A stretch of DNA of 64,000 nucleotides from Candidatus Poribacteria bacterium. Lineage in GTDB: Bacteria > Poribacteria > WGA-4E > WGA-3G. The notes beneath the pieces are model-generated. The model had not been told where the DNA came from. It did not search any database and worked only from the letters and a program-made list of their open reading frames with translations. Both the position numbers and the translations under genes were made by a program. The number at the start of each line of letters is the position of its first letter. The first letter of the stretch is position 1. Shown one piece after another: positions 31 through 56,949 of the stretch. The stretch covers positions 1,696,001 through 1,760,000 of the forward strand of contig CAXXUA010000005.1 in assembly GCA_963663765.2 (NCBI GenBank), given 5' to 3'.

Positions 31-183
31 TACCATTTCATGTGATAATGTCTCATAAGCAGCGGAAATCTGGTAGGAGCAACCTCCCGGTCGCGACAGT
101 GAGGGCGCTCATACCGAAGAGAGTAACCCACTGCCAGTAAACAGTAGAATTCCTTAATCAGACAAGATTTATTTGAATTGGTA
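31..183. mobile_element. TACC-family MITE carrying a REP-A palindrome
   Basis: Ends TACCATTTCA...TGAATTGGTA. Near-identical copies at 687-838, 26465-26768, 38700-38853, 50368-50521 and 51246-51398, most flanked by TAA/TAA or TTA/TTA. Confidence 0.75.
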
Positions 184-184
184 T

Positions 185-677
185 CAATACCTTCGCCAAT
201 AAAAGACATTCTGCTAGATTGCAGGGTTATTTAGTTTTAAGAGTTTTCCATTATTAAGGTTTACTTAAAGTTAATATCCAAGGCCGGTAGGTGCGGTTTC
301 CTAACCGCACCGCATCCTACAGAGCAAGTCATTATGAAGGTTTTTGATCCAAATTCGGTGCGGTTAGGAAACCGCACCTACCGGCCTGGGTATAGCAGGT
401 GTTAAAAATTCGCAAGAATAATCGAAAACTGAATAACCCTGGCCAGATTGTGCGGGTAGTTGTAGCACATTCTGCCAGATTGTGCATATAAATTATTCTG
501 TCAGATTGCTGATATAGTCATTTCTATTGTCAAATTAGACGCTATGATAATTAAAAATACTTCAACGAAAACCTGAAGTTATTTTTATTTATGTAATCCT
601 AACAATATCACAGAGCAATGGTAGATCAACACTATATACTCATTCAACTGAAGCATTCAAAAATGGCGAAGGTATTG
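185..677. mobile_element. CAATACC-family MITE (copy 1) with a nested CAGGG MITE
   Basis: 14-bp TIR CAATACCTTCGCCA/TGGCGAAGGTATTG, 7-bp TSD TTGGTAT. Inverted copy at 2657-3286. Confidence 0.8.
222..441. mobile_element. CAGGG-family MITE with REP-B doublet
   Basis: TIR CAGGGTTATTTAGTTTT/AAAACTGAATAACCCTG, 9-bp TSD GCTAGATTG/GCCAGATTG. Near-identical to 31888-32107. Confidence 0.8.
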
Positions 678-686
678 TTGGTATAA

Positions 687-838
687 TACCATTTTCATGT
701 GATAATGTCTCATAAGCAGCGGAAATCTGGTAGGAGCAACCTCCCGGTCGCGACAGTGAGGGCGCTCATACCGAAGAGTAACCCACTGCCAGTAAACAGT
801 CGAATTCCTTAATCAGACAAGATTTATTTGAATTGGGA
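687..838. mobile_element. TACC-family MITE with REP-A
   Basis: Direct copy of 31-183. Confidence 0.7.
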
Positions 839-1027
839 TTATAGTGGATTTTAGAATTAATTTTACACTTTCAGGTGTAGGAGGGAACTCCGATTCCCGA
901 CTATCAAGACGTTCAGTTCTGGAAATCATGAAAATCCTGGTTCAGATAAAACGAAAATGTTTTCTTATGAAAACATGTAAGAAAATCTTCCTGAAAATCC
1001 ACACCATAGATAACGGAGACACCACAA

Positions 1028-2656
1028 ATGCAATCACCACACGGTTCAGCATTCCGTCCATCGGTCATGGGCAGCAACGGCATGGTTACATCAGGACACG
1101 TACTCGCTTCACAAGCTGGCATACAGACAATGATGGCTGGTGGCAACGCTGTTGACGCCGCAATCGCAACCGCCGCTGCACTCAATGCTGTGGAACCTGC
1201 GGGGTCCGGTGTCGGTGGAGACGGATTTATCCTCATCTATTGGGCAGAGACAGGACAGGTCGCAGCTGTAAACGCTACTGGACCCGCACCACGCGCCGCA
1301 ACCCGAGAAACCTATCTCAAAAATGGGGGTATTCCAATGAAAGGGATGCGAACCGTCTCTGTTCCAGGGCTCGTTGACGGATGGCTACTTGCACATGAAC
1401 GTTACGGGACCCTCAAATTAGATGAAGTTTTCGCACCAGCAATTTCTCTCTGTGAAGAAGGATTCCCCGTCAGCCACAGACTCGCAGGCAGTTTGCGTGG
1501 ACAAAACACAAACTTCGCTGCTGACCCACATACGCGCGCTATTTTCACAAACGAAGGCAACCCAATCCCCGCAGGTGAACGACTTGCAAATCCCAATCTC
1601 GGCACAACCCTACGCAAAATTGCAAAAGATGGTAGAGACATATTCTACGAAGGTAATATTGCTAAAGCCATAGATAAATTCAGCCACGCTCATACCGGGC
1701 TACTAACAGCAGAAGACCTCGCAAACTATCATGCACACTGGGACGATCCAATACACGTCAGCTACCGCGATTATGAAGTATACGAAATGCCTCCAAACTC
1801 AAGCGGACATATCTTATTGCAAGAATTAAACGTCGTAGAATTATTTGATCTGCAAACGTTGGGATACAACACTGCCGAAAGTGTGCATCTAATGGTTGAA
1901 GCGAAAAAACTCGCATTCGCCGATAGGGAAAAATATATGGCAGACCCAAATTGGGTGGATGTTCCAATAGAAGGACTGCTATCAAAATCTTATGCCGCAG
2001 AACAAGCAAAACGAATTGATTTGGAAAAGGCGGCATTTGATATTCCCGCAGGCGGTGCAGAAGCACATCAAGATACGACCTGCTTCTGCACCGCTGACCG
2101 CGCAGGAAATCTTGTTTGCATGCTACAGAGTATCCAATCAGGATTTGGCTCCGGTCTAATAGCAGGTGACACAGGCATTCTGCTAAACAACCGAATGACC
2201 TACTGGCATCTGGAAGAAGACCATCCGAATTGTCTGATACCCGGCAAACGTGTCCGCCATACAATGAATCCCGTCATCGTCACAAAAGATGGCAAACCCG
2301 TGTTAGCATGTGGTACACCGGGAGCAGATACACAAGTCCAAACAAACCTACAATTGGTCACACATGTCCTTGACTTCGGCATGACTCCACAAGAAGCAGT
2401 CTCCGCTCCGCGTTGGCGAAGTCTTCAAAACCCAATGGAATCCACTATCCCACACACATGTTCCAACCACCTACAGTTAGAAAAGCGATTCCCCTCAGAT
2501 ACTCAAGAAGGTTTAGCACAGAAAGGACATGAACTCCAACTTATAGGGGATTGGGGCGGTCCGGGCAGCGCACAAATGATACAGATCCATCACGAATCTG
2601 GTGCACTCATCGGCGGCTCCGACCCACGAACTGATGGATATGCTGTCACATATTAA
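1028..2656 (+). CDS. ggt: gamma-glutamyltransferase family protein
   Basis: GGNAVDAA, EP..SG.GGD, nucleophile Thr in DTTCFC, GILLNNRM and DPR motifs. Confidence 0.92.
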   Translation: MQSPHGSAFRPSVMGSNGMVTSGHVLASQAGIQTMMAGGNAVDAAIATAAALNAVEPAGSGVGGDGFILIYWAETGQVAAVNATGPAPRAATRETYLKNGGIPMKGMRTVSVPGLVDGWLLAHERYGTLKLDEVFAPAISLCEEGFPVSHRLAGSLRGQNTNFAADPHTRAIFTNEGNPIPAGERLANPNLGTTLRKIAKDGRDIFYEGNIAKAIDKFSHAHTGLLTAEDLANYHAHWDDPIHVSYRDYEVYEMPPNSSGHILLQELNVVELFDLQTLGYNTAESVHLMVEAKKLAFADREKYMADPNWVDVPIEGLLSKSYAAEQAKRIDLEKAAFDIPAGGAEAHQDTTCFCTADRAGNLVCMLQSIQSGFGSGLIAGDTGILLNNRMTYWHLEEDHPNCLIPGKRVRHTMNPVIVTKDGKPVLACGTPGADTQVQTNLQLVTHVLDFGMTPQEAVSAPRWRSLQNPMESTIPHTCSNHLQLEKRFPSDTQEGLAQKGHELQLIGDWGGPGSAQMIQIHHESGALIGGSDPRTDGYAVTY

Positions 2657-3286
2657 CAATACCTTCGCCATTTTTGAGTGCTTCAGTTGAATGAGTATAT
2701 AGTGTTGATCTACCATTGCTCTGTGATATTGTTAGGATTATATAAATAAAAATAACTTCAGGTTTTCGTTGAAGTATTTTTTATCATAGCAGGGTTATTT
2801 AGTTTTAAGAGTTTTCTGTTATTGAGATTTACTGAAAGTTAATACCCAGGTTTGGTTTCCTAACCGAACTTTCTGCATCAGTTTTAGATTATTGAAAAAT
2901 GAATATCGCTCTTTAGTCCCGTAGGGACGATATGTTTATAGAAAACGAATACCCTCCCCAGTTCTTTAGTCCCGTAGGGACGATATGTTTATTTTTCTAT
3001 GTCGTTCCTACGGAACTCAAGAGGGATAGATAACATGTTTCTATAAACATATCGTCCCTACGGGACTAAAGACATGGACAAGATGGCAACACATAATATT
3101 AACGACATAGCAAAATATTATCAATAATATTGAAAACTGAATAACCCTGTTATCACATCCTCTAATTTGACAATAGAAATGACTATATCAGCAATCCGAC
3201 AGAATAATTTATAGGCACAATCTGGCAGAATGTGCTACAACTGCCCGCACAATCTGGAAGAATGTCTATTATTGGCGAAGGTATTG
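2657..3286. mobile_element. CAATACC-family MITE (copy 2, inverted) with a nested CAGGG MITE
   Basis: Same 14-bp TIR. Its 7-bp TSD ATATTAA includes the ggt stop codon. Confidence 0.8.
2790..3149. mobile_element. CAGGG-family MITE with REP-C cargo
   Basis: 17-bp TIRs, diverged TSD TTATCATAG/TTATCACAT. The empty site is visible in copy 185-677. Confidence 0.75.
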
Positions 3287-3329
3287 ATATTAACTATAGT
3301 AGAATATACAATTAATTCTACATCATGGA

Positions 3330-3477
3330 GGTAGGAGTGACCTCCCGGTCGCGACCGTTGTCATTCCTACAGTGGTGGTAGGTGCGACCTCCTGGTCGTG
3401 ACTGTGGTCATTCCTACAGTGGTAGGAGCAACCTCCCAGTCGCGACCGTGGTAGGAGCGACCTCCTGGTCGCGACCG
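3330..3477 (+). repeat. REP-A cluster (GTAGGAGCGACCTCCYGGTCGCGACC)
   Basis: Four GTAG-headed hairpin units. Confidence 0.8.
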
Positions 3478-3526
3478 TTAATTCACCATAATAACTCTGG
3501 ATATACACTGAATACGGAGAGACACA

Positions 3527-4677: not shown

Positions 4678-6342
4678 ATGAAAACAACATTTTGGACAAC
4701 ATATAGGTACGGGGCAATCCTACTGCTCCTCGCCTTTTTCGTAGCAAGTTGTGCAACAGTCACAACAATGACAAGAACCGATACACACGTCCCCTCAAGC
4801 ACAAAACACTTGGACAGACACATCAATGCTGTCCTAAAACGAGAAGGACTACAACCCTCAAGACAAACAACCGATGCCGAATTTCTTAGACGCATCTATT
4901 TGGATATGACAGGAAAAATACCCACACGAGATCAAGTGTTAGATTTTGTTGATGACGGCGCATCAAACAAACGCGCAAAACTCATTGACGAACTTATCGG
5001 CAGCGAAGATTCTGTTAAATTCTGGACAAACAAATGGGTGAACTGGCTCATCGGAAGACGCGACGATGGCGATGACAGACGCGTCGGTCTAAATACATGG
5101 GTAGAAGAAGCCATCCAAACCAACATCCCTTACAACGAATTTGTCCGAGAACTTGTCGCCGCTGATGGAGAAATAAAGGATAACCCCGCAGGAAACTACG
5201 TCCTACGATATGAACGGTCACCAGTCGTCTTAACCTCTCATACCTCACGCCTCTTCCTCGGACTCCCAATGCAATGCGCTGAATGCCACGACCATAAAAC
5301 TGAAGCATGGCTACAAGAAGATTTCTACGGAGTCGCCGCATTCTTCACAGGTATTCAAAGTGAGGAAAGAGGAAACATCGAAACCACAGATATGATCGGC
5401 GATATGAAAACAATGGAGAATTACTACATCTTCTATAACCCAAAACAGAATAAGGATATCTATGTTGAAAGTATGAATGAATCTGTCTCACCACGGTTCC
5501 TTGACGGCACAGATTATGATGGGGAACTCAACAATAAACGAGAAGCACTCGCAGATTGGATAACAGCCGACACAAACCCATACTTCAGCAAAGCCATCGT
5601 AAACCGTATCTGGAAACACTTTATGGGACGCGGTTTCGTTGAACCCATCGACGGCTTCGGAGAAGAATATCCCGCATCCAATCCTGAACTCCTCGCATGG
5701 TTAGCAGAAGATTTCGTCATTCACAGATACGACCTGCAACACCTGATGCGCATCATCCTAAATTCAAACACATATCAACGAAGCTCTGAAACAAATAAAA
5801 GCAACGAAGATGATGAATTCTACTACTCGCACGCATATATGAAACCTTTGAGTGCTGAACAATTCTTCTACTCTTTGATTCAAGCAACAGATTTTGACAG
5901 ACGCCAACACTTAGATATGGGTGGATTAGGCAACAAAAGTGGAGATGAACGCATGGACAAGTTACGAGGCTTTGAGCGAGAAAAACGCGAACATCTCAAA
6001 AAATTCCTATTCCTACTTGACAACGGAGAAATGGAAGAAATTGAAGCATTCAACGGTACCGTACCACAAGCTCTCATGATGATAAACGGTGATATGGTAA
6101 CTGAAAGTTCCAACTACAAAAAACGCGGAAGTTTCATAAACTACGTCCTTCAAAACTGGAGAGAAACACCCGAAAGGGTTGAATACATATATCTCTCCGT
6201 CCTCTCACGCAAACCAACTGCTAAAGAACAAACCTTTTTCAAACGCTACTTAGATAGAAGTAATTACAGAGAGAAAAGTTTGGCTTACGAAGACCTCTAT
6301 TGGGTACTTCTGAACTCAGCAGAGTTCTCGCTAAACCATTAG
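4678..6342 (+). CDS. DUF1549/DUF1553 (PSD1-type) lipoprotein with CxxCH motif
   Basis: FLRRIYLD.TG..P, FLG..MQCAECHDHK, VNRIW.H.MGRG.V.P.D and S.TYQ.SS motifs; lipobox VASC. Start moved to the ATG after RBS AGGAG. Confidence 0.85.
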   Translation: MKTTFWTTYRYGAILLLLAFFVASCATVTTMTRTDTHVPSSTKHLDRHINAVLKREGLQPSRQTTDAEFLRRIYLDMTGKIPTRDQVLDFVDDGASNKRAKLIDELIGSEDSVKFWTNKWVNWLIGRRDDGDDRRVGLNTWVEEAIQTNIPYNEFVRELVAADGEIKDNPAGNYVLRYERSPVVLTSHTSRLFLGLPMQCAECHDHKTEAWLQEDFYGVAAFFTGIQSEERGNIETTDMIGDMKTMENYYIFYNPKQNKDIYVESMNESVSPRFLDGTDYDGELNNKREALADWITADTNPYFSKAIVNRIWKHFMGRGFVEPIDGFGEEYPASNPELLAWLAEDFVIHRYDLQHLMRIILNSNTYQRSSETNKSNEDDEFYYSHAYMKPLSAEQFFYSLIQATDFDRRQHLDMGGLGNKSGDERMDKLRGFEREKREHLKKFLFLLDNGEMEEIEAFNGTVPQALMMINGDMVTESSNYKKRGSFINYVLQNWRETPERVEYIYLSVLSRKPTAKEQTFFKRYLDRSNYREKSLAYEDLYWVLLNSAEFSLNH

Positions 6343-6351
6343 AACCAATGC

Positions 6352-6382
6352 AGACGGTTCGTCTATAAACGAACCGTCTTTC
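6352..6382 (+). terminator. probable intrinsic terminator
   Basis: AGACGGTTCGT...ACGAACCGTCT hairpin followed by a short T run. Confidence 0.5.
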
Positions 6383-6403
6383 TATATATAGGAGAATTAC
6401 CAA

Positions 6404-7129
6404 ATGAAAAAACTTAGCATATTAATCCTCTTATGTTGTTTCACCCTTAGTTTTACAACGATTACCTCATCTCAAATCTACTTTGAAGATGACTTTGACA
6501 ACGTCAATGAATCTCAAGAGAAGTGGACTCCCTTGTGGGGAACCTGGGAATTCAAAGATAAGGAATACCATCAACTCCTAAATGATTCCAATTGCATGAG
6601 CATTGTAACAGACAAATATTGGGAAGAAGATTGGAACGATTACACATTTGAAGTACGCGGCAATAAAATCAGTGGCGCCGAAGGTTTCTTGATTATGTTC
6701 AGGTGTCAAGGCACAATGAATCCCCGTGGGAAAAACCTTGAAACACATCCGCCACGCATGCAAAACCAAGATCAATTAGAATACTGGTGGAACCTTGGCG
6801 GGTGGAATAATACTCGTTCACAAATTGAAACTTGGGGCGTCAGTGCCGGTCAAGCTGGTGCAAATAGCAGCCACACCATTGACACTGATGAATGGTATAA
6901 CATCAAAATCGTCAATACCCCCACAAGTTATACGCTAATTATCAATGATGAAGAGGTACACGAAATTAGCGATAATAGCAGAGACGGTGTCGGTAGAATC
7001 GGTGTCGCAACATGGAATACCACGGCAAGATTCGAAGATGTCCTCGTCTATGGTCCCAAAGGGGCTTTACCTGTTGACCCCAACGGCAAAATCGCTACAA
7101 GTTGGGGACTCATCAAAGCCGGAAGATAG
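6404..7129 (+). CDS. secreted concanavalin-like (DUF1080/LamG-like) protein with C-terminal VDPxGKIATSWGLIK motif
   Basis: Signal peptide; beta-sandwich motifs FEDDFD, WYNIKI, GRIGV and FEDVLVY. Confidence 0.65.
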   Translation: MKKLSILILLCCFTLSFTTITSSQIYFEDDFDNVNESQEKWTPLWGTWEFKDKEYHQLLNDSNCMSIVTDKYWEEDWNDYTFEVRGNKISGAEGFLIMFRCQGTMNPRGKNLETHPPRMQNQDQLEYWWNLGGWNNTRSQIETWGVSAGQAGANSSHTIDTDEWYNIKIVNTPTSYTLIINDEEVHEISDNSRDGVGRIGVATWNTTARFEDVLVYGPKGALPVDPNGKIATSWGLIKAGR

Positions 7130-7230
7130 TATATTGTTGGAGGGGTTTCTAACCTCGTTTTGATTACCACACCAACACTATATATATATAGTAATATAGT
7201 AACCTTTACTACAAAAAAGGAGCATACAAT

Positions 7231-7947
7231 ATGAAAAGGTTGAGTACGTTTATTCTCTTATGTTGTTTAACTTTCGGACTTGTAACTACCGCAATGTCAC
7301 AAGTCTACTTTCAAGATGATTTTGAGCAACCAAGTGAATCTGAAATGAAATGGGTGCCACTCTTCGGAAACTGGCAAATCGCAGATGGCGTATATAAACA
7401 ATCCGCAAATAGTGTCAATTGTATCAGCCTCGTCGCAGACGAATACTGGGACGAAAGTTGGAACAGCTACACCTATGAAGTCCGAGGCAGCAAAGTCGGT
7501 GGTGCTGAAGGATTCTTGATATTATACAGATGCATGGGACTCATGCAAGACAGAGGACAATCACTCGCTGCACATCCACCACGTATGATAGACCAACCAC
7601 GTTTAGAATACTGGTGGAACATCGGCGGCTGGGGAAACACACAGTCAACAGTAGAATCCTGGGGCGGCACTGGCACCGGTTTTACCACGCACAAAGTCGT
7701 TACTGGAGACTGGTACAATATCAAAATCGTAAACACACCTACAAGTTATACGCTCTACTATAATGATGAAATGGTAGAAGAAGTAAGTGATTCCGCCCAA
7801 GATGGGCACGGACGCATCGGTCTCGGAACCTGGGCAACTATGGCAAACTATGATGACGTCCTCGTCTACGGACCCGATGGTCCCACACCCGTTGACCCAA
7901 AAGGCAAAATCGCTACAAGTTGGGGACTCATCAAAGCCGGAAGATAA
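7231..7947 (+). CDS. secreted concanavalin-like protein, paralogue of 6404-7129
   Basis: Colinear motifs and an almost identical C-terminal tail. Confidence 0.65.
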   Translation: MKRLSTFILLCCLTFGLVTTAMSQVYFQDDFEQPSESEMKWVPLFGNWQIADGVYKQSANSVNCISLVADEYWDESWNSYTYEVRGSKVGGAEGFLILYRCMGLMQDRGQSLAAHPPRMIDQPRLEYWWNIGGWGNTQSTVESWGGTGTGFTTHKVVTGDWYNIKIVNTPTSYTLYYNDEMVEEVSDSAQDGHGRIGLGTWATMANYDDVLVYGPDGPTPVDPKGKIATSWGLIKAGR

Positions 7948-7972
7948 GTTCTCCCGCAACTAACATTTAATG

Positions 7973-8009
7973 GAGGTAGCGTCATCACAGATGGCACTAC
8001 CTCTTTTTT
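7973..8009 (+). terminator. intrinsic terminator
   Basis: GAGGTAG..CATC/GATG..CTACCTC hairpin plus TTTTTT. Confidence 0.65.
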
Positions 8010-8039
8010 AGTAAATAAAAACAAATCAAAGGCAAAAAA

Positions 8040-8435
8040 ATGGAAGAACATTCAAAATACGACGAATTACAAACACATATAAGACAACTAAAAACACTAC
8101 CAATAGAAACATGGGAGAACAAATACAGCGACAAAGACTATACAATAGAAATAACCAACCTTGAATTTACTGCTGTCTGCCCCAAAACAGGTCTACCCGA
8201 TTACGCAACAATCCGCATCACCTATGTCCCAGACAAACACTGCGTTGAACTCAAGTCCCTCAAAGAATACTTTGTCTTCTATCGGGATATCGGCATATTC
8301 CATGAGCATCTCGTCAACAAAGTACTTGAAGACTTCGTCGCAGCCTGCCAACCACGCTCCGCAGAAGTCGTCGGCGATTTCAACATCCGCGGCGGCATCA
8401 AAACCATCGTCACCGCAAACTATCAAATGAAATAA
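8040..8435 (+). CDS. queF: NADPH-dependent preQ0 reductase (unimodular QueF)
   Basis: EFTAVCPKTGLPD, ELKSLK, FHE and RGGI motifs. Confidence 0.93.
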   Translation: MEEHSKYDELQTHIRQLKTLPIETWENKYSDKDYTIEITNLEFTAVCPKTGLPDYATIRITYVPDKHCVELKSLKEYFVFYRDIGIFHEHLVNKVLEDFVAACQPRSAEVVGDFNIRGGIKTIVTANYQMK

Positions 8436-8568
8436 TTCAAACCAAACCCACAACCTCCTCCCTGGTAGGAGCGACCTCCCGGTCGCGACCGTCACGCAAA
8501 ACACCGTCACGACCAGGCGGCCCCTCCTACGAACAACCAACAGATCATTACATACAATGGAGGAAACC

Positions 8569-8673
8569 ATGCGAAAAAGATCCCAACCAAGACACAATCA
8601 ATTACGAAAAGGTCGACGCTCAATTCCTGGTGCATATTATTCTATAACCTTGTCAACACAAAATCGAGACCCA
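8569..8673 (+). pseudogene. truncated REP-associated tyrosine transposase (RAYT) N-terminus
   Basis: RBS GGAGG then MRKRSQPRHNQLRKGRRSIPGAYYSITLSTQNRDP, resembling RAYT N-termini. Cut by the MITE at 8674 and flanked by REP-A units. Confidence 0.65.
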
Positions 8674-9192
8674 CAGGGTAATTCAGTTTTAGGAGTTTTC
8701 TGTTATTGAGATTTACTGAAAGTTAATACCCAAATGAGGTTTTCTAAATGCACGTTATACATCAATTTTAGATTATTGAAACATGAACATCGCTCTTTAG
8801 TCCCGTAGGGACGATATGTTTATAGAAAACGAGTGCCCTTCCCAGTTCTTTAGTCCCGTAGGGACGATATGTTTATAGAAAACGAGTGCCCTTCCCAGTT
8901 CTTTAGTCCCGTAGGGACGAAATGTTTATAGAAAACGAGTGCCCTTCCCAGTTCTTTAGTCCCGTAGGGACGAAATGTTTATAGAAAACGAGTGCCCTTC
9001 CCAGTTCTTTAGTCCCGTAGGGACGAAATGTTTATTCTTCTATGCCGTTCCTACGGAACTCAAGAGGAGTAGATAACATTTTACTATAAACATATCGTCC
9101 CTACGGGACTAAAGACATGGACAAGATAGTAACACATATAATTAACGTTATAGCAAATAATCATCAAAAAAACCTAAAACTGAATAACCCTG
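8674..9192. mobile_element. CAGGG-family MITE with REP-C tandem array (53-bp period, 5 units)
   Basis: TIRs present but no matching TSD, which suggests an adjacent deletion. Confidence 0.75.
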
Positions 9193-9201
9193 CTCCCCCC
9201 C

Positions 9202-10490
9202 GTAGGAGCGACCTCCCGGTCACGAACGTTTTACACAAAATCCGCGATACAAACACACACAGGTCACGACCGTCACACAATACACAGTCGCGACCAGGAG
9301 GTTGCTCCTACCAGATCGCTACTGTCATACAAACACGCACAGCTCGCAAACGTCATGCAAAACACAGTCGCAAACGTAAACCCAAAGTCACAACCTCCTC
9401 CCTGGTAGGAGCGACCTCCCGGTCGGGACCGTTTTACACAAAATCCGCGATACAAACACGCACAGGTCACGAACGTCATACAACCTCCCGGTCGCTAACG
9501 TCACACAATACAAGATCGCGAACGTCAAACCAAACCCACAACCTCCCCGGTCGCAAACGTCAAACCAAACACTCAACAACCTCTCTGGTAGGAGCGACCT
9601 CCTGTTCGCGAACGTTTTACCCAAAATCCACGATACAAACACGCACAGGTCGAGAACATCACACATTATACCAAATTAACTTGAACTGTCTCGTTCAAGG
9701 CGCGGTTAGGAAACAGCACCATAGGCGTCAATTAAAGAAAAGATGTTGGTGTTTCTCGTGTGGGTGGGTTTTCAACCCCGATTTGGCAATTTGAAACCTG
9801 TATAATCGGGGTTGAAAACCCCTCACATATTGGTGTAAACTTAAGAATACGCTTGTATTACTATGACTCCATGTCAATACCTAATGTTATTGGGATTGTC
9901 TTATATACAGTCCCGTAGGGACGATATGTTTATAGATCACACACGAACAACCGTCCGTTAGTCCCGTAGGGACGATATGTTTATAGATCACACACGAACA
10001 ACCGTCCGTTAGTCCCGTAGGGACGATATGTTTGTACGAACCCCATCTTATAAACATATCGTCCCTACGGGACTAAAGAGGGTGGTGGCATCGTTTATCT
10101 ATAAACATATCGTCCCTACGGGACTAAATATAGGACAGTTCAATCCCGATAAGGGTTAAGAAGCACTCATAAACACATAAACGTATTCTTAAGTTTACAC
10201 CTATGGGGTTGAAAACCCCTCCCACAATACGTCAAAATCCTTAATTTGACGCCTATGATTCGGTTAGGAAACAACATCTACCATCGGAAAAAGATAAATT
10301 CCGTTAATTTGGTATTACACGTTCGCGACCGTCAACCCAAACCCACAACCTCCCGATCGCAAACGTCAAACCAAACCCACAACCTCCCCCGGTAGGAGCG
10401 ACCTCCCGGTCGCGACCGTTTTACCCAAAATCCGCGATACAAACACTCAACGCCCCCGGTAGGAGCGACCTCCCGGTCACGACCGTCACG
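9202..10490 (+). repeat. degenerate REP-A array interrupted by a nested MITE stack
   Basis: Repeated GTAGGAGCGACCTCC..GGTC units with recurring linkers CAAAATCCGCGATACAAACAC. Confidence 0.7.
9669..10314. mobile_element. three-level nested MITE stack: TACC shell containing CAT MITE 9720-10257, which contains CAT MITE 9828-10205
   Basis: Outer TIR TACCAAATTAAC/GTTAATTTGGTA with TTA TSD. Inner TIRs CATAGGCGTCAA and (T/C)AT(T/A)GGTGTAAACTTAAGAA with ~19-20 bp duplications. Confidence 0.7.
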
Positions 10491-15499: not shown

Positions 15500-16119
15500 A
15501 TTATTTTTTCTATGTCTTACAATTTAATTATAGAAATGGTATTCCAAATAAGAAATATCATTACATCTGTATTATATATATATATATATCCAAACCAAAA
15601 CCTGCTTTTTGTATATGGTAGGTTTTAGTTGTCTATCCCATCATAACGTAGTTGCATATTGAACAGACATGTTAATAATAACATAAATATTAATTATTTG
15701 CAACTAATTTATGATACTATTTTATTTATTTTATGTCTTAATATGAATTATTAAAACATATTGTATACTAATATACGTTATAAGTCAAATAAAAATTACA
15801 AGAAAATTCACTTTTTTTGCGAAAAATCTCCATAAAATGTAAAATCCTTGAAAAATAAACGTTTTTTTGCTATTATATTAAGCAGGACTTACGCATTAAA
15901 TTGTAGGCGTGCTTTGTAAGCGCGCTGGAAAAGGTAACAAACATGGGTTGGTGCAAATCCTAAGTGTGCCGATCACTTGTTCTTAGGTTAGTTGGTACAT
16001 TCGGAAAACGAATGTTTTATATTTACACACATATATATTAAGGGCATCGGTGTCATTTTGGCAAGTTTGACACTGTGAAGGGGAGACTTTCGTTTTCCTT
16101 TGTGCCAATTTGATTTCTG

Positions 16120-19917: not shown

Positions 19918-19959
19918 ATCGGGTTTCGCAAACTCAACCGTATTGGCGTAAACTTTCTT

Positions 19960-20562
19960 GTGGGAGGGGTTTTCAACCCCGATTTCTTCGGTAGGAGCGA
20001 CCTCCTGGTCGCGACCGTTTTCAACCCCGATTTCTTCGGTAGGAGCGACCTCCTGGTCGCGACCGTCAAACCAAACCTACAACTATTGGTAGGAGCGACC
20101 TCCTGGTCGCGACCGTTTTCAACCCCGACCGTGTGTGAGGATTTGTCTGAACCAGGATTTTCAGGATTAGTAGATTTTCAGGATTTCACTCATTAGATGT
20201 TTTGATGCACATTGATGTTTTCTTTTGAATGGTGCCAAAATGCGACAGACTCACAATCCTGGAAATCTGTAAATCCTGTGAATCCTGGTTCAGACAGAAT
20301 CCGCGTAAACAGTCGGGGTTGAAAACCCCAATTTCTTCGGTAGGAGCGACCTCCTGGTCGCGACCGTTTTCAACTCCATCGCGACCATGCACCGCGCTGG
20401 TAGGAGCGACCTCCTGGTCGCGACCGTACACCGCGCTGGTAGGAGCGACCTCCTGGTCGCGACCGTTTTCAACCCCAATTTCTTCGGTAGGAGGGACGCT
20501 CTTGTGGGAGGGGTTTTCAACCCCGATTTCTTCGGTAGGAGCAACCTCCTGGTCGCGACCGT
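19960..20562. repeat. mixed REP-A/REP-E array with AATCCTG..AATCCTGGTTCAGAC inverted repeats
   Basis: Repeated GTAGGAGCGACC and GTGGGAGGGGTTTTCAACCCCGA units. Confidence 0.75.
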
Positions 20563-20635
20563 CTTTGAATACCTATGCCATACGCGCAATCACCCAATGG
20601 CATTCCCCGCGTCGCTCTTTCAAATTCATCTGCCA

Positions 20636-21451: not shown

Positions 21452-21472
21452 GATTATTGCTCCTATACAATA

Positions 21473-21553
21473 CAGGACTTACGCACCCACGGTATGCGTG
21501 CTTTGTATGCGGGAATGCCAAAAGGCATTCATACCGTAGGTGCGTAAGTCCTA
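21473..21553. mobile_element. CAGGACTTACGCA-family MITE
   Basis: TIR CAGGACTTACGCA/TGCGTAAGTCCTA, 5-bp TSD CAATA. Lone ends also at 15883 and 43703. Confidence 0.65.
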
Positions 21554-21917: not shown

Positions 21918-22282
21918 CAGGGTTATTTAGTTTTAAGAATTATCAGTTAATGGGTGTTACTTAAAGTTTATATCGTAGTTCGGGTAGAGCGTATGCGAAA
22001 CCCGACATGTATTGATTTTGTCTATCATGTCGGGTTTCGCTCACGCTCTACCCATAGGTGTCAACTTAAGGATTCTGACCTCTTGTGGGAGGGGTTTGCA
22101 ACCCCGATTTTATGTTCATTTCCACTCAAATCGGGGTTACAAACCCCTCCCACAAGAGAATATGCCAACACTTTTTTCTTAAGTTGACACCTATGGGTTT
22201 CGCTCACGCTCTACCCGACCTACGATATTAAATCATGAATGTTATAAATATCTGCCAAAATATCTAAAACTGAATAACCCTG
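21918..22282. mobile_element. CAGGG MITE with REP-D doublet and nested CAT MITE (22053-22195)
   Basis: Perfect 9-bp TSD CATAAATCC; inner 20-bp duplication GGTTTCGCTCACGCTCTACC. Confidence 0.85.
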
Positions 22283-22299
22283 CATAAATCCGAATTGAC

Positions 22300-23577: not shown

Positions 23578-23587
23578 GAGGAATCAC

Positions 23588-24505
23588 ATGCCAAAAACCT
23601 ATAAAACACTGACAGAATCAGATGTCCAACATTTCATAAAGAAGGGACACGTTGTCCTGAAAGACTGCTTTTCGCGCGAATTAGCAGCGGAATGGCGCGC
23701 ACTCGCTTTCAAACGACTCGGCTACGACCCCGACAACCCATCAACTTGGCAGGAACCCCGCATACACATGCCATCCATGAACCGTAAACCTATTCAAGAA
23801 ATTGCTCCGAGAGCCTGGGACGCCATCTGTGACCTACTCGGTGGTGATGATAGAATTGCTAACAGAGAACCGTCATGGAGTGATGGATTCATCATAAACT
23901 TTGCCTTAGGCGCCGATAAAAAATGGATACCGCCTGAAACACATCGATGGGGTTGGCATAAAGATGGAGATTTCTTCCGACACTTTTTGGACAGTCCCGA
24001 ACAAGGACTGCTCACTATCATTGTCTGGTCTGATATTCAACCAAAAAGCGGCGGCACTTTTGTGGCATGCGATTCAGTGCAGCATGTGGCACGGCATCTG
24101 TTTGAAAATCCACAAGGACTCCGACCCGGAGATGGTTTCGGTCAGTTGGTCGAGAAGTGCAAAGACTTTGTAGAAATCACAGGGAACGCAGGGGATGTTG
24201 TGCTTTTGCATCCATTTATCTTGCACTCTGCATCCAACAACCCATCCGGCCGCGCTCGTTTCATCACAAACCCACCAGTTGCACTCAAAGAACCGATGAA
24301 TTTCAACCGTCACAACCCAGACGATTTCTCCCCTGTGGAACTGGCAGTTTTGCGGGGATTAGGTAAAAGCCGCTTAGACTTCAAAACAGAAGCACCGCGC
24401 GAACGTTTAGTACCAGAACGTATCAAACGCCAAAAGAAAATGTTGGAAGAGCAGAAGAAACGGCTTGCAGTGGTAGGAGCGAACTCCCGGTCCCGACCGT
24501 TTTAG
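23588..24505 (+). CDS. PhyH-like 2OG-Fe(II) dioxygenase
   Basis: WHKDGD, GGTF and GDVVLLHPFILHS motifs. The last ~11 codons come from a REP. Confidence 0.8.
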   Translation: MPKTYKTLTESDVQHFIKKGHVVLKDCFSRELAAEWRALAFKRLGYDPDNPSTWQEPRIHMPSMNRKPIQEIAPRAWDAICDLLGGDDRIANREPSWSDGFIINFALGADKKWIPPETHRWGWHKDGDFFRHFLDSPEQGLLTIIVWSDIQPKSGGTFVACDSVQHVARHLFENPQGLRPGDGFGQLVEKCKDFVEITGNAGDVVLLHPFILHSASNNPSGRARFITNPPVALKEPMNFNRHNPDDFSPVELAVLRGLGKSRLDFKTEAPRERLVPERIKRQKKMLEEQKKRLAVVGANSRSRPF

Positions 24506-24871
24506 AATCTTGTGGTAGGAGCGACCTCCCGGTCCCGACCGTTTTACAATCTTGTGGTAGGAGCGACCTCCCGGTCCCGACCGTTTTACAATCTTGTGGT
24601 AGGAGCGACCTCCCGGTCCCGACCGTTTTACAATCTTGTGGTAGGAGCGACCTCCCGGTCGCGACCGTATACCGCGCTGGTAGGAGCGACCTCCCGGTCG
24701 CGACCGTATACCGCGCTGGTAGGAGCGACCTCCCGGTCGCGACCGTTTTACAATCTTGTGGTAGGAGCGACCTCCCAGTCGCGACCGTATACCGCGCTGG
24801 TAGGAGCGACCTCCCGGTCGCGACTGTTGTCCTCCCCTTCAATGGTAGGAGCGACCTCCCGGTCGCGACCG
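24472..24871 (+). repeat. tandem array of 10 REP-A units with two recurring linkers
   Basis: Linkers GTTTTACAATCTTGT and GTATACCGCGCT. Confidence 0.85.
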
Positions 24872-24984
24872 TTATTTTCAACATAATTCTTGATTAAATC
24901 AAGAAAACTGCGTCCGGCCTGTTCTCTGCTCTTAATTACAATCCTTCCTATCTAATCCCCAAACATCACAGTTCATCAGTTTTA

Positions 24985-26464: not shown

Positions 26465-26768
26465 TACCATTTCAAATAAATCTTGTCTCATTAAGGAAGT
26501 CTAATGTTTACTGCCAGGGGGGTACTCGCTTCGGTAGGAGCGACCTCCCGGTCGCGACCGTAAGATCACTGCTGAGATCTCTGGTAGGAGCGACCTCCCG
26601 GTCGCGACCGTCAAACCAAACCTACAACTATCGGTAGGAGCGACCTCCCGGTCGCGACCGTAAGATCACTGCTGAGATCTCTGGTAGGAGCGACCTCCCG
26701 GTCGCGACCGTGTTGTCCCACCTACCAGATTTACGCTGATAATGAGACATTATCACATGAAAATGGTA
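26465..26768. mobile_element. TACC-family MITE with four REP-A units
   Basis: TAA TSD; internal duplication of REP units. Confidence 0.75.
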
Positions 26769-31887: not shown

Positions 31888-32107
31888 CAGGGTTATTCAG
31901 TTTTAAGAGTTTTCCATTATTAAGGTTTACTTAAAGTTAATATCCAAGGCCGGTAGGTGCGGTTTCCTAACCGCACCGCATCCTACAGAGCAAGTCATTA
32001 TGAAGGTTTTTGATCCAAATTCGGTGCGGTTAGGAAACCGCACCTATCGGCCTGGGTATAGCAGGTGTTAAAAATTCGCAAGAATAATCGAAAACTGAAT
32101 AACCCTG
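31888..32107. mobile_element. CAGGG MITE with REP-B doublet
   Basis: Perfect 9-bp TSD ATAACTGTC. Confidence 0.85.
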
Positions 32108-38699: not shown

Positions 38700-38853
38700 T
38701 ACCAATTCAAATAAATCTTGTCTCATTAAGGAATTCTAATGTTTACTGGCAGGGGGTTACTCTCTTCGGTAGGAGCGACCTCCCGGTCGCGACCGTGAGA
38801 TCGCTCCTACCAGATTTCCGCTGATAATGAGACATTAGCAACGGAAAATGGTA
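38700..38853. mobile_element. TACC-family MITE with REP-A
   Basis: TTA TSD. Confidence 0.75.
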
Positions 38854-43218: not shown

Positions 43219-43339
43219 CAGGATTATTCAGTTTTCCTAATTTTTGGATTTTTCAAAAAAGAAACCCCGCGGTAGGAGCGACCTCACGGTCGCGATTTTC
43301 TCAGGAGATAGCTAAAATGCCAAAAACTGAATAACCCTG
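43219..43339. mobile_element. short CAGGG MITE with a single REP-A
   Basis: TIRs; TSD AGTTAAAAT/AATTAAAAT. Related inverted copy at 55580-55698. Confidence 0.7.
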
Positions 43340-43447: not shown

Positions 43448-43589
43448 CATAGGCGTCAATTTAAGGATTTTGACCTCTTGTGGGAGGGGTTTTCAACCCC
43501 GAATTTATGCGCTTTTTCTCTCAAATCGGGGTTGAAAACCCCTCCCACAAGAGAAATGACAACAATATGTTCTTAAATTGACGCCTATG
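43448..43589. mobile_element. CAT (IS231-like end) MITE with REP-E doublet, inserted in a REP-F
   Basis: TIR CATAGGCGTCAATTTAAG; 19-bp duplication AGGAGGGAACTCCGATACC. Confidence 0.8.
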
Positions 43590-43721
43590 AGGAGGGAACT
43601 CCGATACCCGACTGTACGAGGGAACTCCGATACCCGACTATCAAGACGTTCAGTCGCGATTCGGAGATCGCTCCTACAGAACAAGTGTAAACTTAATTGT
43701 ATCAGGACTTACGCACCCAAC

Positions 43722-44220
43722 GGTAGGCGCGCTTTGTAGGCGGGGAATGCCAAAAGGCATTCATACCGTTGATTTCTTGATTTGGTGCTTTGTAAGCGCG
43801 CCCCGAACTCACCCGCAATCCCCTGCAGGCGGGGAATGCCATACGCGCATTCATACCGTTGATTTGGTGCTTTGTAAGCACGCCCCCCAACTGCAATCCC
43901 CTGCAGGCGGGGAATGCCATACGCGCATTCATACCGTTGATTTGGTGCTTTGTAAGCGCGCCCAAACTCACCCGCACTCACCTGCTGGCGGGGAATGCCA
44001 TACGCGCATTCATACCGTTGATTTGGTGCTTTGTAAGCGCGCCCAAACTCAGCCGCACTCACCTGCAGGCGGGGAATGCCATACGCGCATTCATACCGTT
44101 GATTTGGTGCTTTGTAAGCGCGCCGTTCCCAATAGGAGGGAAACCTTTAAATCCCGATTTTCTCACTCAAGGTAGGCGGGGAATGCCTAAATGGCATTCA
44201 TACCGTTGATTTCGCCCTAC
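43722..44220 (+). repeat. ~80-bp tandem REP-G composite repeats
   Basis: GCGGGGAATGCCATACGCGCATTCATACCGTTGATTTGGTGCTTTGTAAGCGCGCC repeated about 5 times. Confidence 0.8.
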
Positions 44221-44309
44221 AATGGAGAGTGGGATGTTTGTGCAAAAACTTTACACACCCTGCAAGAATTTGGTGCAAGTACAGCGAAATAAGCTATATT
44301 GCAATACAC

Positions 44310-46721: not shown

Positions 46722-47666
46722 TAAAGTTATTTTCTTTTAGTAGCTTTTGCAGATATTTATAACATTCGTGAATTAGATGCGTAGGTCGGGTAGAGCGATA
46801 GCGAAACCCATAGGTGTCAACTTAAGAAAATATTGTTGGCATATTCTCTTGTGGGAGGGGTTTGTAACCCCGATTTGATAGGTGTCAACTTAAGAAAATA
46901 TTGTTGGCATATTCTCTTGTGGGAGGGGTTTGTAACCCCGATTTGATAGGTGTCAACTTAAGAAAATATTGTTGGCATATTCTCTTGTGGGAGGGGTTTG
47001 TAACCCCGATTTGATAGGTGTCAACTTAAGAAAATATTGTTGGCATATTCTCTTGTGGGAGGGGTTTGTAACCCCGATTTGAGTGGAAATGAACATAAAA
47101 TCGGGGTTGAAAACCCCTCCCACAAGAGGTCAGAATCCTTAAGTTGACACCTATGGGTAGAGCGATAGCGAAACCCGACATGTATTGATTGTAGTTGTCA
47201 TGTCGGGTTTCGCTATCGCTCTACCCATAGGTGTCAACTTAGCGATTCATATTATTGTAGGAGGGAAACCTTGAAATCCCGATTTTCTCACTCAAGGTAG
47301 ACGTGCTTTGTAAGCGCGCCCCCTAACTGCACTCACCTGCAGGCGTGTTTTGTAAGCGCGCCCCGCACTCACCCGCACTCAACTGCAGGCGTGCTTTGTA
47401 AGCGCGCCCCGCAACTGCAGACGTGCTTTGTAAGCGCGCACCTCAACTGCAGGCGTGCTTTGTAAGCGCGCCGTTGCCAATCCTGTGTTTATCGGCGCAC
47501 TTACAAAGCACGCCTACCGAGATGGGGTATTTAGCACTTGACTTTTTCTTAAGTTGACACCTATGGGTTTCGCTATCGCTCTACCCGATCTTCGATATAA
47601 ACTCTAAGTAACACCCATCAACTGTAACACCCATCAACTGATAATTCTTAAAACTGAATAACCCTG
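46722..47666. mobile_element. CAGGG MITE (degenerate left TIR) with REP-D doublet; each REP is hit by a CAT MITE (46809-47155, 47226-47565)
   Basis: 9-bp TSD TAATTAAGG; two 20-bp inner duplications; a 68-bp unit repeated 4 times at 46810-47081. Confidence 0.8.
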
Positions 47667-49394: not shown

Positions 49395-49530
49395 TGCTTA
49401 GTCAACATACTATTGTAGGTTGAGATTCGGAGATCGCTCCTACAGAAGTCTTGTGTATTGTGTGTATTGTAGGAGGGAACTCCGATTCCCGACTACTTTT
49501 TAGACCCATCAATAAATACTTGACTAAGCA
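49395..49530. mobile_element. TGCTTAGTCAA-ended MITE with REP-F units
   Basis: 11-bp TIR and 4-bp TSD CTCT. Confidence 0.6.
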
Positions 49531-50367: not shown

Positions 50368-50521
50368 TACCAATTCAAATAAATCTTGTCTCATTAAGGA
50401 ATTCTAATGTTTACTGGCAGGGGGTTACTCTCTTCGGTAGGAGCGACCTCCCGGTCGCGAACGGGAGGTCGCTCCTACAAGATTTCCGCTGCTAATGAGA
50501 CATTATCACATGAAAATGGTA
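50368..50521. mobile_element. TACC-family MITE with REP-A
   Basis: TTA TSD. Confidence 0.75.
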
Positions 50522-50613
50522 TTACTTTTCTAAAGACTGACAAATTTCAGACATACCGCTCCGCTGGAGCGGAATTAAGGAACTATTTTTTCTATAAACA
50601 TATCGCTCTGCTG

Positions 50614-51517
50614 CAGGGTTATTCAGTTTTAGGAGCTTTCTGTTATTGAGATTTACTGAAAGTTAATACCCAAAAGAGGTTTCCTAACTGCACCTTATAC
50701 ATCAATTTTAGATTCTTGAAACATGAACATCGCTCTTTAGTCCCGACAAATGCCATACGGGGAATGCCTAAATGGCATTCATACCGTTGATTTGGCGCAT
50801 TTGGCGTTGATTTGGTAGGGACGATATGTTTATAGAAAACGAATACACTCCACAACTCTTTAGTCCCGTAGGGACGATATGTTTATAGAAAACGAATACA
50901 CTCCACAACTCTTTAGTCCCGTAGGGACGATATGTTTATAGAAAACGAATACACTCCACAACTCTTTAGTCCCGTAGGGACGATATGTTTATAGAAAACG
51001 AATACACTCCACAACTCTTTAGTCCCGTAGGGACGATATGTTTATAGAAAACGAATACACTCCACAACTCTTTAGTCCCGTAGGGACGATATGTTTATAG
51101 AAAACGAATACACTCCACAACTCTTTAGTCCCGTAGGGACGATATGTTTATAGAAAACGAATACACTCCACAACTCTTTAGTCCCGTAGGGACGATATGT
51201 TTTTTCTTCTATGCCGTTCCTACTGAACTCAAGAGAGTTAGATAATACCAATTCAAATAAATCTTGTCTCATTAAGGAATTCTAATGTTTACTGGCAGGG
51301 GGTTACTCTCTTCGGTAGGAGCGACCTCCCGGTCGCGACCGAGAGTCACTCCTACAAGATTTCCGCTGCTAATGAGACATTATCACATGAAAATGGTATA
51401 ACATTTTTCTATAAACATGTCGTCCCTACGGGACTAAAGACACGGACAAGATGGCAACATATAAAATTAACGTCATAGCAAAAAATCATCAAAAATACCT
51501 AAAACAAAATAATCTTG
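50614..51517. mobile_element. CAGGG MITE with REP-C array and nested TACC MITE (51246-51398)
   Basis: TSD GCTCTGCTG/GCTCCGCTG; degenerate right TIR. Confidence 0.75.
50815..51201 (+). repeat. perfect 53-bp tandem repeat (7 full copies plus a partial)
   Basis: Unit GTAGGGACGATATGTTTATAGAAAACGAATACACTCCACAACTCTTTAGTCCC. Confidence 0.9.
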
Positions 51518-55579: not shown

Positions 55580-56071
55580 CAGGGTTATTCAGTTGCTGGC
55601 ATCTTAGTTGTTTCCTGAGAAAATCGCAACCGGGAGGTCGCTTCTACCGTGTGGTTTCTTTTTTAAGAATCCAAAAATTTGGAAACTAAATAACCCTGTG
55701 CATTTGCAGGGTTATTTAGTTTTAAGTATTATCAGTTAATGGGTGTTACTTAAAGTTTATATCGTAGGTCGGGCAGAGCGTATGCGAAACCCAACATGTA
55801 TTGATTTTGTCTATCATGTCGGGTTTCGCATACGCTCTACCCATAGGTGTCAACTTAAGGATTCTGACCTCTTGTGGGAGGGGTTTGCAACCCCGATTTT
55901 ATGTTCATTTCCACTCAAATCGGGGTTACAAACCCCTCCCACAAGAGAATATGCCAACACTTTTTTCTTAAGTTGACACCTATGGGTTTCGCATACGCTC
56001 TACCCGACCTACGATATAAAATCACGAATGTTATAAATATCTGCCAAAATATCTAAAACTGAATAACCCTG
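55580..56071. mobile_element. two tandem CAGGG MITEs (55580-55698, 55707-56071); the second has a nested CAT MITE (55842-55984)
   Basis: Target TGCATTT(A)G present three times. The second element is nearly identical to 21918-22282. Confidence 0.8.
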
Positions 56072-56088
56072 TGCATTTAGGGTTTTAC

Positions 56089-56117
56089 TTGACATATATG
56101 CCAAGATTTGTTAAGAT
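56089..56117 (+). promoter_or_regulatory. sigma70 promoter TTGACA-N17-TAAGAT with extended TG
   Basis: Upstream of 56187. Confidence 0.55.
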
Positions 56118-56186
56118 ATAAGCATATTTGACGCATATAACTTGCGATGTATCGCACAAAATCACAACTGATGAGGAGAAGAAATT

Positions 56187-56795
56187 ATGAATTTCAAACT
56201 TGAAGAAATAGATGGTTTGGAGGAAGAAACACCGTTAGAACTTGAAGAAGAAAAGGACGACGATCTCACTGACGATGATGAGATGGATCCCCTCGGTGTG
56301 GAAGCAAGTGATGACGATGAATCTCCTGATGCACCTTCTTATGAACCTGATGAGCCTGATGAACCTGATGAACCTGATGAGCCTGATGAACCTGTAGATA
56401 CAGCCTACGATTATGATGAAGAGGATGAAGATTCTGGGTTGTTAGTTTTAGAGCCGCAGCGTGTAGAAGTGCCAGCATTTAACGCACAAGAAGAGAATAA
56501 TTTCGCTTATTCGGAAGCTGTTAGAGCCTACTATGAAGAGAGAAACTATGAACAGGCAATCGAAAAATTTGATGAAGCTATAAAAAACGAGAAAAAGCAA
56601 AGGAAGGGTAAAAAGTCTGGGCCAAACGAAATCATTGCGAAATCAATGTATTGGCAGGGAGAGTCTTACGTCAAAACTCACGATTTTTCAAAAGCAATTA
56701 AGACTTTTGAATCACTTGTAAAAACATGTAAAGAACATTACTTGACTGTATCAGCGCAACGTCGCGCGGAAATCTTGAAAGCGAAACACTCTTAA
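56187..56795 (+). CDS. acidic low-complexity N-terminus plus TPR domain protein
   Basis: (EPD)n repeat; YEQAIEKF and SMYWQGESY...FSKAIKTF TPR motifs. Confidence 0.75.
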   Translation: MNFKLEEIDGLEEETPLELEEEKDDDLTDDDEMDPLGVEASDDDESPDAPSYEPDEPDEPDEPDEPDEPVDTAYDYDEEDEDSGLLVLEPQRVEVPAFNAQEENNFAYSEAVRAYYEERNYEQAIEKFDEAIKNEKKQRKGKKSGPNEIIAKSMYWQGESYVKTHDFSKAIKTFESLVKTCKEHYLTVSAQRRAEILKAKHS

Positions 56796-56799
56796 TCTA

Positions 56800-56949
56800 A
56801 CCCGAATTGATACCTATTATTTGTTGGTGGGGTATCTAATCCGATTGACAACAGAAACATAAAAACAACGAGTTCTGAAGTCAATATTCATAAATCGGGG
56901 TTAGAAACCCTCCCACAAAAGTATTCTGAAAGTAGGTGGCAACTTAGGT
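56800..56949. mobile_element. ACC-ended MITE with degenerate REP-E doublet
   Basis: Imperfect TIR ACCCGAATTGATACCTA/TAGGTGGCAACTTAGGT; 7-bp TSD TAATCTA. Confidence 0.55.

Follow-up and report, generated by a model that had tools for sequence, protein, structure and literature searches.

The window analysed here is a 64,000-bp stretch (contig C5:1696001-1760000) of a sponge-associated Candidatus Poribacteria genome of 6.35 Mb in 15 contigs, with a G+C content of about 41%. The DNA between its genes holds two kinds of repeat, one lying inside the other: small transposable elements of the miniature inverted-repeat kind (MITEs), bounded by terminal inverted repeats (TIRs) and target-site duplications (TSDs), and repetitive extragenic palindromes (REPs). 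The genes themselves are of an ordinary chromosomal kind and include a gamma-glutamyltranspeptidase, an adenylosuccinate synthetase, a WD40 protein, a PhyH dioxygenase and two tRNAs. One conserved protein of 1138 amino acids matches 80 loci, all from Candidatus Poribacteria or uncultured metagenome-assembled genomes, with a top identity of 70%. Because the nearest named relatives share 60-70% identity in this protein, we used paralogous empty sites in place of orthologous intergenic ones. The repeat load is high: 10.5% of the genome lies within 14-mers of at least ten copies, and high-copy intergenic repeat accounts for 10,075 bp of the window. Paired TIRs, here called shells, number 23 in the window (5,077 bp in total; TSD at 17 of 23), and at least one is present in 12 of the 18 intergenic stretches of 250 bp or more. 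An earlier reading of the window, made from its letters without database searches (the original prediction), held that most long intergenic regions resolve into such elements. It was right about their kind and overstated their extent, as about half of the repeat DNA lies outside paired shells, in REP arrays and solo ends.

Across the whole genome, the TIR words of the original prediction were searched for, inverted ends were paired, and flanks were compared for TSDs; the control set the left flank of one element against the right flank of a second one from the same family. Of seven families claimed, six hold across the genome with the TSDs assigned to them, and the seventh, 'ACC (7 bp)', was searched for and not located. 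Shells make up 4.18% of the genome. As expected of MITEs, their TIRs are common to many short copies: each family has between 6 and 266 paired shells, and the MITEs of families with a parent IS measure 80-630 bp and number from tens to hundreds. In the CAGGG family a direct repeat of 8-10 bp flanks 152/253 shells (9 bp in 120), against 0/253 in the control. The parent of this family is intact: eleven 1315-bp copies of an insertion sequence (IS) have CAGGG ends, perfect 9-bp TSDs (11/11) and a 387-aa transposase that matches the ISAs1 model NF033564 at 234.3 bits (cut-off 70) as well as PF13808 and PF01609. ISAs1 elements have TSDs of about 8-10 bp and ends that start with CAGGG. ISAs1-type MITEs in the window include two of 220 bp, at 222..441 (9-bp TSD, identical at 8/9) and at 31888..32107 (TSD ATAACTGTC, with an internal REP doublet); one of 360 bp at 2790..3149; one of 519 bp at 8674..9192, which holds an expanded tandem array of a 53-bp R2 unit and for which no TSD was found; one of 121 bp at 43219..43339, with a single central R1 REP and a TSD identical at 8/9 positions; one of 119 bp at 55580-55698; and two composites of 365 bp, at 21918..22282 (TSD CATAAATCC) and 55707-56071.

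Two further families have intact parents. Shells with CAGGACTTACGCA ends (the CAGGAC family) carry a TSD in 177 of 266 cases, 5 bp long in 156, compared with 5/266 in the control, and eight 1091-bp IS copies share these ends, with 5-bp TSDs at 8/8 and a transposase that scores 376.5 bits against the IS701 model NF049921 (cut-off 250). The CAATACC family has a 6-8 bp TSD at 54/71 shells (control 1/71). Its parent is present in four copies of 1457-1458 bp with a DDE_5 / IS701-like transposase (DDE_5 E 7.7e-41) that reaches 119 bits against NF049999, below the cut-off of 170. Target duplications are 5 bp for the 1091-bp IS and its MITEs and 6-8 bp for the 1457-bp IS, unlike the duplication of exactly 4 bp that De Palmenaer et al. 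(2008), in the part of that survey covered, give for almost all IS701 members. The window holds a truncated IS701-type MITE of 81 bp at 21473..21553 (TSD CAATA), which independent contigs cover without mismatch, a solo IS701-type TIR with an R3 REP at 15883..15931 (+), and an IS701-type TIR followed by R3 REPs with a 36-bp R5 hairpin insert at 43703..44230 (+). Both CAATACC-type MITEs of the window have 7-bp TSDs: a 493-bp copy at 185..677 (TTGGTAT) and a 630-bp copy at 2657..3286 (ATATTAA).

The remaining three families have target repeats of their own. A TSD of 18-21 bp flanks 114/169 CATAGG shells (19 bp in 63 and 20 bp in 48; control 7/169). TAA or TTA stands on either side of 138/166 TACC shells, for which the plain 3-bp control (66/166) is uninformative because the target itself is fixed. 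All six shells with TGCTTAGTCAA ends (the TGCTTAG family) have a 4-bp TSD, a count for which no control was made. TACC-type MITEs, which belong to a family of about 153 bp, lie in the window at 31..182, with a central R1 doublet and a 3' end that served as the target of the next element; at 687..838; at 26465..26768 (TSD TAA), where expansion of the R1 repeat has brought the length to 304 bp; at 38700..38853 (TSD TTA; fold z -4.48); and at 50368-50521 and 51246-51398, the two ends of a region (50368..51398) that encloses an ISAs1 TIR and a 53-bp R2 array. A TGCTTAG-type MITE, 136 bp at 49395..49530 (TSD CTCT), contains two inverted REPs of types that flank genes for REP-associated tyrosine transposases (RAYTs). 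Full-length IS elements with the same TIRs, which the original prediction had proposed to look for, are thus present and intact for CAGGG (ISAs1), CAGGAC (IS701) and CAATACC (DDE_5), and were not found in this genome for CATAGG, TACC and TGCTTAG. DDE parentage is shown for the first three families; for the latter three a DDE enzyme is our assumption.

The genome has at least ten families of GTAGG- or GTGGG-headed REP hairpins, arranged singly, in inverted pairs or in arrays, and shell interiors consist of the single and doublet forms. Counted without bias over all pentamers, GTAGG is fourth of 512 in its enrichment within repeat DNA (5.8-fold). The doublets fold very strongly, with z from -4.5 to -11.65. 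The intact RAYT gene that the original prediction proposed to look for exists in one copy, at C4:621598-622074 (NF047646 at 122.5 bits, cut-off 80), with arrays of R10 and R11 on both sides; the same model scores above its cut-off in 19 of the 31 genomes searched. A second RAYT gene, frameshifted and cut by a contig end, adjoins arrays of R3, which is the hairpin type inside the 122-bp CAGGAC MITE. The window contains a remnant of a third at 8569..8673 (+), whose 35 amino acids are 66% identical to the N-terminus of the intact RAYT. An inverted pair of R1-type REPs lies just upstream (8460..8540), and the remnant stops exactly where the 519-bp CAGGG MITE starts. Together with its R1 REPs it has the look of a REP-RAYT unit in decay. 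R12, the type present as a doublet in the 202-bp CAGGG MITE, flanks a further RAYT clade (about 200 bits) in congeners; no member of this clade was found in the genome studied here. Judged by whether they flank a RAYT, then, at least four of the hairpin types carried in shells qualify as REPs.

TIR pairs elsewhere in the genome are far from mostly lacking REP cargo: among shells shorter than 900 bp, 657/870 carry a listed REP. The claim that REPs ride in shells is borne out by the consensus sequences, since a REP singlet or doublet is part of the consensus of each abundant MITE subfamily. The CAGGG MITEs have one R1 REP in the 120-bp consensus, an R12 doublet in that of 202 bp, an R8 doublet in that of 220 bp and several R2 REPs in that of 360 bp; the 122-bp CAGGAC MITE has an R3 REP, the 143-bp CATAGG MITE an R4 doublet, and the 153-bp TACC MITE (183 genome matches longer than 120 bp) an R1 doublet. 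Counted from the side of the REPs, 251/612 copies of R1 are in shells, 189 of these in TACC shells; 265/641 copies of R2, with 254 in ISAs1 shells; 186/403 copies of R3, with 148 in IS701 shells; and 190/271 copies of R4, with 186 in CATAGG shells (0.6% of the genome). For R5 and R6 the counts are 156/398 and 48/105, and 30 of the 34 exact copies of R12 lie in ISAs1 shells, as against 12/247 copies of R10 and 2/64 of R11 in shells of any kind. Six REP families (R1-R6) therefore have 39-70% of their copies in shells, each family being tied to one shell family. This one-to-one, family-specific pairing of REP and shell is the signal.

Several REP stretches of the window stand outside any shell. 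Four R1 REPs (GTAGGAGCGACC type) form an array at 3326..3487 (+), R4 (GTGGGAGGGG type) and R1 REPs alternate in arrays at 19921..20611 (+), and an R1 tandem array with a period of 39-42 bp occupies 24468..24903 (+). Free R1 REPs are found at 9197..9624, with more copies at 10387-10495. Between these, CATAGG-type ends at 9720..10257 surround an R2 array in what is a broken or composite element for which no TSD was found.

The CATAGG MITE stands in a different relation to REPs. Reconstruction of its empty sites places a GTAGG head in 52/114, compared with 5% of random 40-mers, and a 12-mer of at least ten copies in 85/114, compared with 21% of random sites. Its duplications begin with GG and end with CC, and many of them are palindromic REP stems. 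As the 19-20 bp duplication spans the hairpin, insertion copies the hairpin on both sides and does not destroy it. In the window, a 143-bp copy at 22053..22195 carries an R4 inverted doublet (z -11.65) and a 20-bp TSD that copies one REP arm; a 142-bp copy at 43448..43589 sits with a 19-bp TSD in an R10 REP, the RAYT-flanking type; and 47013..47565 holds two copies, at 47013-47155 and at 47226-47565, the second with a 20-bp TSD and an R3 array inside. This is an old MITE, shared by 17 of 18 congeners and also present in 1 of 12 genomes of other genera; 20 copies drawn from four congeners have the R4 doublet in 20/20, with compensatory stem variants, and TSDs of 17-20 bp in 15/20. Separately, among the multi-copy open-reading-frame (ORF) families of the genome there is a 1458-bp IS with an 8-bp TSD whose own TIR word is a CATAGG target.

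The nesting three elements deep that had been described for the window is confirmed at two places. In one, the CAATACC MITE at 185-677 encloses the ISAs1-type MITE at 222-441 (fold z -10.96), the interior of which is an inverted doublet of a GTAGG-headed REP (284-392); in the other, the composite at 21918-22282, equivalent to a 202-bp subfamily MITE with its R12 doublet plus a nested CATAGG MITE, encloses the CATAGG copy at 22053-22195 and its REP doublet. The composite at 55707-56071 has a CATAGG MITE at 55842-55984, also with a 20-bp TSD. Within the second CAATACC MITE of the window, the 360-bp ISAs1-type MITE with its R2 REPs (GTAGGGAC type) occupies a different site of the outer element. 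Paralogues provide both states of the composite: five 'empty' copies of the CAGGG MITE are 202-204 bp long and seven filled copies 365-366 bp, and the difference is exactly the 143-bp CATAGG MITE and its 20-bp repeat. The CATAGG MITE has entered either REP arm and in both orientations, which takes no fewer than three independent insertions. In two identical composites the outer 9-bp TSDs are perfect but not the same, from which it follows that the nest was moved again as a unit. Moreover, one and the same CAGGG insertion junction is common to 9/61 CAATACC MITEs whose outer flanks differ.

A smaller insert, R5, has entered the REPs of some shells. The 122-bp CAGGAC MITE also exists in forms of 158 and 193 bp, which have one or two 36-bp R5 hairpins added. 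The insert sits after the GTA[A/G]GCG word of R3 without a TSD, and a C occupies one fixed position before R5 in 88% of copies genome-wide. R5 itself, present some 400 times, is a 36-bp hairpin whose tail comprises one to four units of 8 bp (for example at window positions 43725-43790), found without a TSD in several REP types and in R5 itself. It may move by an HUH-type single-strand route; a comparison with IS605 ends as its source gave no match.

We think it probable that this is an ordinary Poribacteria chromosome whose intergenic DNA has been colonised by entangled MITEs and REPs, through passive hitch-hiking of REPs and the activity of one REP-targeting MITE. The actors are at least six MITE families with fixed TIRs and fixed-length TSDs, three with an intact parent IS and three orphaned here, and REP families of which several flank genes, or the remains of genes, for RAYTs, which are HUH tyrosine transposases. 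The MITEs may have been built by capture of REP-containing DNA between TIRs. Once a REP is built into a MITE consensus, each DDE-type transposition of the shell copies the REP too, and the resulting spread by passive hitch-hiking is seen directly as TSD-flanked copies. The orphan CATAGG MITE does the converse, entering REP hairpins by a 19-20 bp staggered cut with GG...CC ends and thereby duplicating the hairpin. Nested composites are then moved again as units, and RAYT may still move some of these REPs. The stronger claim of the original prediction, that REPs and MITEs spread each other, is not shown: hitch-hiking and one REP-targeting MITE account for the data, and nothing shows RAYT moving shells or a mutual dependence of the two systems.

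Several results count against our interpretation or narrow it. Shells were called from seed words with mismatches followed by stack pairing, a procedure that may have joined the wrong ends in some cases. About 40% of the high-copy DNA is shell (4.18% versus 10.5% of the genome), and so the bare fraction of REPs in shells is not in itself an enrichment. For the six REP families associated with shells, 30-60% of copies are found in arrays and not in paired shells; either shells are not the sole route or the pairing misses decayed shells. Single REPs fold modestly (z -1.4 to -2.0). The idea that shells land in REPs applies to the CATAGG family and not to the other four families tested, which have a GTAGG head at 0-6% of sites and thus no preference. 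Public short-read contigs stop at every repeat and therefore neither confirm nor refute the exact nests or empty alleles. Finally, the search for an autonomous element with CATAGG, TACC or TGCTTAG ends, confined to this genome, found none. It covered unpaired ends with nearby ORFs (a noisy approach), multi-copy ORF families with ends, long shells, and 38 of the 76 places with a PF01609 (DDE_Tnp_1) match. One candidate for an IS4-family CATAGG parent, L087, which is 1807 bp long and has CATAGG ends with a TSD of 19 bp, was rejected. Once aligned, the four copies of its transposase prove to have in common just a core of 1660 bp, with ends of its own and a TSD of 6-7 bp; what L087 contains is therefore a separate IS4-family IS nested in a CATAGG MITE, and it is the one case in this genome of an IS4-type transposase between CATAGG ends. 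This 1660-bp IS, which encodes a Tn5-type dimerisation domain, is found at C4:1180654-1182460 (L087), C6:430133-431359, C6:355626-356852 and C5:1130470-1131696. Three of its four copies lie at or in R4-type REP heads, two of them within CATAGG MITEs.

Could the two systems be more closely bound? In a truly reciprocal coupling, REP insertion driven by RAYT and MITE transposition driven by DDE enzymes would boost each other as one co-adapted unit. Traffic does run in both directions, and R5 has inserted, with no TSD, into REPs that lie within MITEs, so that the element grew from 122 to 158 and then 193 bp. In addition, shells rarely hold REPs whose cognate RAYT is intact (R10, 12/247; R11, 2/64) and often hold those for which the RAYT is frameshifted, reduced to a remnant or not found here (R1, 41%; R3, 46%; R12, 30/34). 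That contrast, however, is based on four or five REP families, and REP targeting is confined to a single MITE family. Two congeners, G006 and G012, possess both the RAYT clade and shell-borne R12, which means that shells are not confined to RAYT-less genomes; the proposal that REPs become shell-borne only where RAYT has been lost is weakened accordingly. Another, G013, has 50 CATAGG matches and no RAYT match, although its genome is just 81% complete. On balance we regard reciprocal coupling as improbable.

Alternatively, the hairpins could be working parts of the MITEs, either subterminal structures for transposition or selected terminators, with their likeness to REPs reflecting origin alone and RAYT having no present role. 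The position of the hairpin is invariant within each subfamily, the doublets reach z values down to -11.65, and the hairpin of the CATAGG MITE has been kept across congeners with compensatory stem variants. Yet the ISAs1 TIR pair encloses four unrelated REP interiors (in the MITEs of 120, 202, 220 and 360 bp), none of which is present in the parent IS, so no particular hairpin is required by the transposase. The same REP types are also found free and flanking RAYT genes, and a purely structural role is in our judgement unlikely. Much less credible still is that the nests are mis-joined repeats. Independent contigs break at all repeats and offer no direct confirmation; the joints in these contigs fall within repeats and may stem from other copies. 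Nevertheless, nests of these types turn up repeatedly, at many loci whose perfect TSDs differ and whose flanks are unique, a pattern that an assembly artefact could not produce, and congeners carry the same MITE with the same TSD length. The unique flanks match public contigs from four runs of two studies, and across positions 6001-26000 their unique parts show no mismatch in the pieces listed. An assembly origin of the nests would be very surprising.

Compared with systems already described, each component is familiar, be it the MITEs, the REP/RAYT systems, the nested repeats or the IS elements that target REPs. Like IS-derived MITEs, the three families with parents have TIRs identical to those of full-length IS copies in the same genome and fixed TSDs; unlike them, their interiors are unrelated to the parent beyond a TIR of about 17-26 bp and are made of hairpins resembling REPs or REPINs (REP doublets forming hairpins). 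The GTAG-type head, the short GC-rich hairpin and the RAYT gene flanked on both sides are as in REP/REPIN-RAYT systems, to judge from the sections covered of Nunvar (2010), Bertels and Rainey (2011) and Di Nocera (2013), whereas here a large share of REP copies lies inside TIR/TSD shells. Those sections handle REPs and MITEs as separate classes, and in Bertels and Rainey there is speculation that REPINs could be building blocks of more complex repeats. The targeting of REPs by IS elements is already in print: part of Tobes and Pareja (2006) describes ISPsy8, ISPa11, ISPpu9/10 and ISRm22, which target REPs, break the REP and leave direct repeats of 0-6 bp. The CATAGG MITE resembles these in entering a fixed place in a REP palindrome, a symmetric target; it differs in that its 19-20 bp repeats span the hairpin, leaving an intact copy on each side, and in being a MITE without a known parent.

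The length of that duplication also sets the CATAGG MITE apart. In the part covered of De Palmenaer et al. (2008), duplications are about 10 bp in the IS4 family and about 5 bp in IS701, ISH3 and IS1634. For the IS1202 family, the text covered gives target duplications of 5-6, 15-17 and 27-28 bp and TGT ends; the CATAGG MITE is like that family in having fixed, unusually long duplications and unlike it in their length (19-20 bp), in its CAT ends and in having no transposase linked to it. A 19-20 bp TSD with CAT ends fits none of IS4, IS701, ISH3, IS1634 and IS1202. No account of REP-cored MITEs, or of a MITE that duplicates a hairpin over 19-20 bp, is given in the portions covered of PMC3733652, PMC3184786, PMC2266710, PMC10969869, PMC3116915, PMC1525189 and bioRxiv 10.1101/2022.12.17.520857, which is not proof of absence. 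In cyanobacteria, very small repeats that lie inside other repeats without obvious duplications are said to have been described by Elhai and colleagues in 2008; they would be R5-like, in a different phylum and with different sequences.

REPs and REPINs, moved by HUH tyrosine transposases, and MITEs, moved by DDE enzymes, have been held as separate classes, and in this genome they are physically fused on a large scale. Such fusion is a concrete way for REP populations to grow without a transposase of their own, and it offers a natural test for ideas on how REPIN populations persist. A broader possibility, which we put forward tentatively and with less confidence, is that MITE transposition by DDE enzymes is a second replication route for REPs, that REP-cored MITEs thereby allow REP families to persist and multiply once their RAYT has decayed, and that an orphan MITE found throughout the genus has specialised on REP hairpins, which it duplicates, with a staggered cut of two helical turns (19-20 bp). 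This would be a form of hyperparasitism across classes, between two kinds of non-autonomous element, of which the texts covered gave no description. The 19-20 bp duplication of the CATAGG MITE represents, in any case, a distinct transposition geometry.

With about 10% of a symbiont genome in high-copy repeat and spurious ORFs running through REP arrays, assembly and annotation are affected as well. Within the window, ORFs of 100-220 aa run through REP arrays at 16100-16468, 20229-21052, 24423-24886 and 43709-44579; they are likely spurious and at risk of being miscalled as genes. Other repeats of the window are of different kinds. A unit of about 320 bp is repeated three times in tandem at 30764-31705 (66-74% alike), in intergenic DNA with few high-copy words. 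A TnpB gene at 61557-62747 (+), with OrfB_IS605 and a Cas12f1-like TNB domain, is one of 27 family members genome-wide and has no adjoining TnpA; it falls outside the range of the elements described above (31-56949). On either side of the TnpB region stands a 300-bp direct repeat, 96% identical between 59789-60088 and 63511-63810. Elsewhere in the genome, multi-copy families include a 1723-bp IS1634-like IS, an 883-bp IS5-like IS, and two families of no assigned kind, with 20 and 16 copies.

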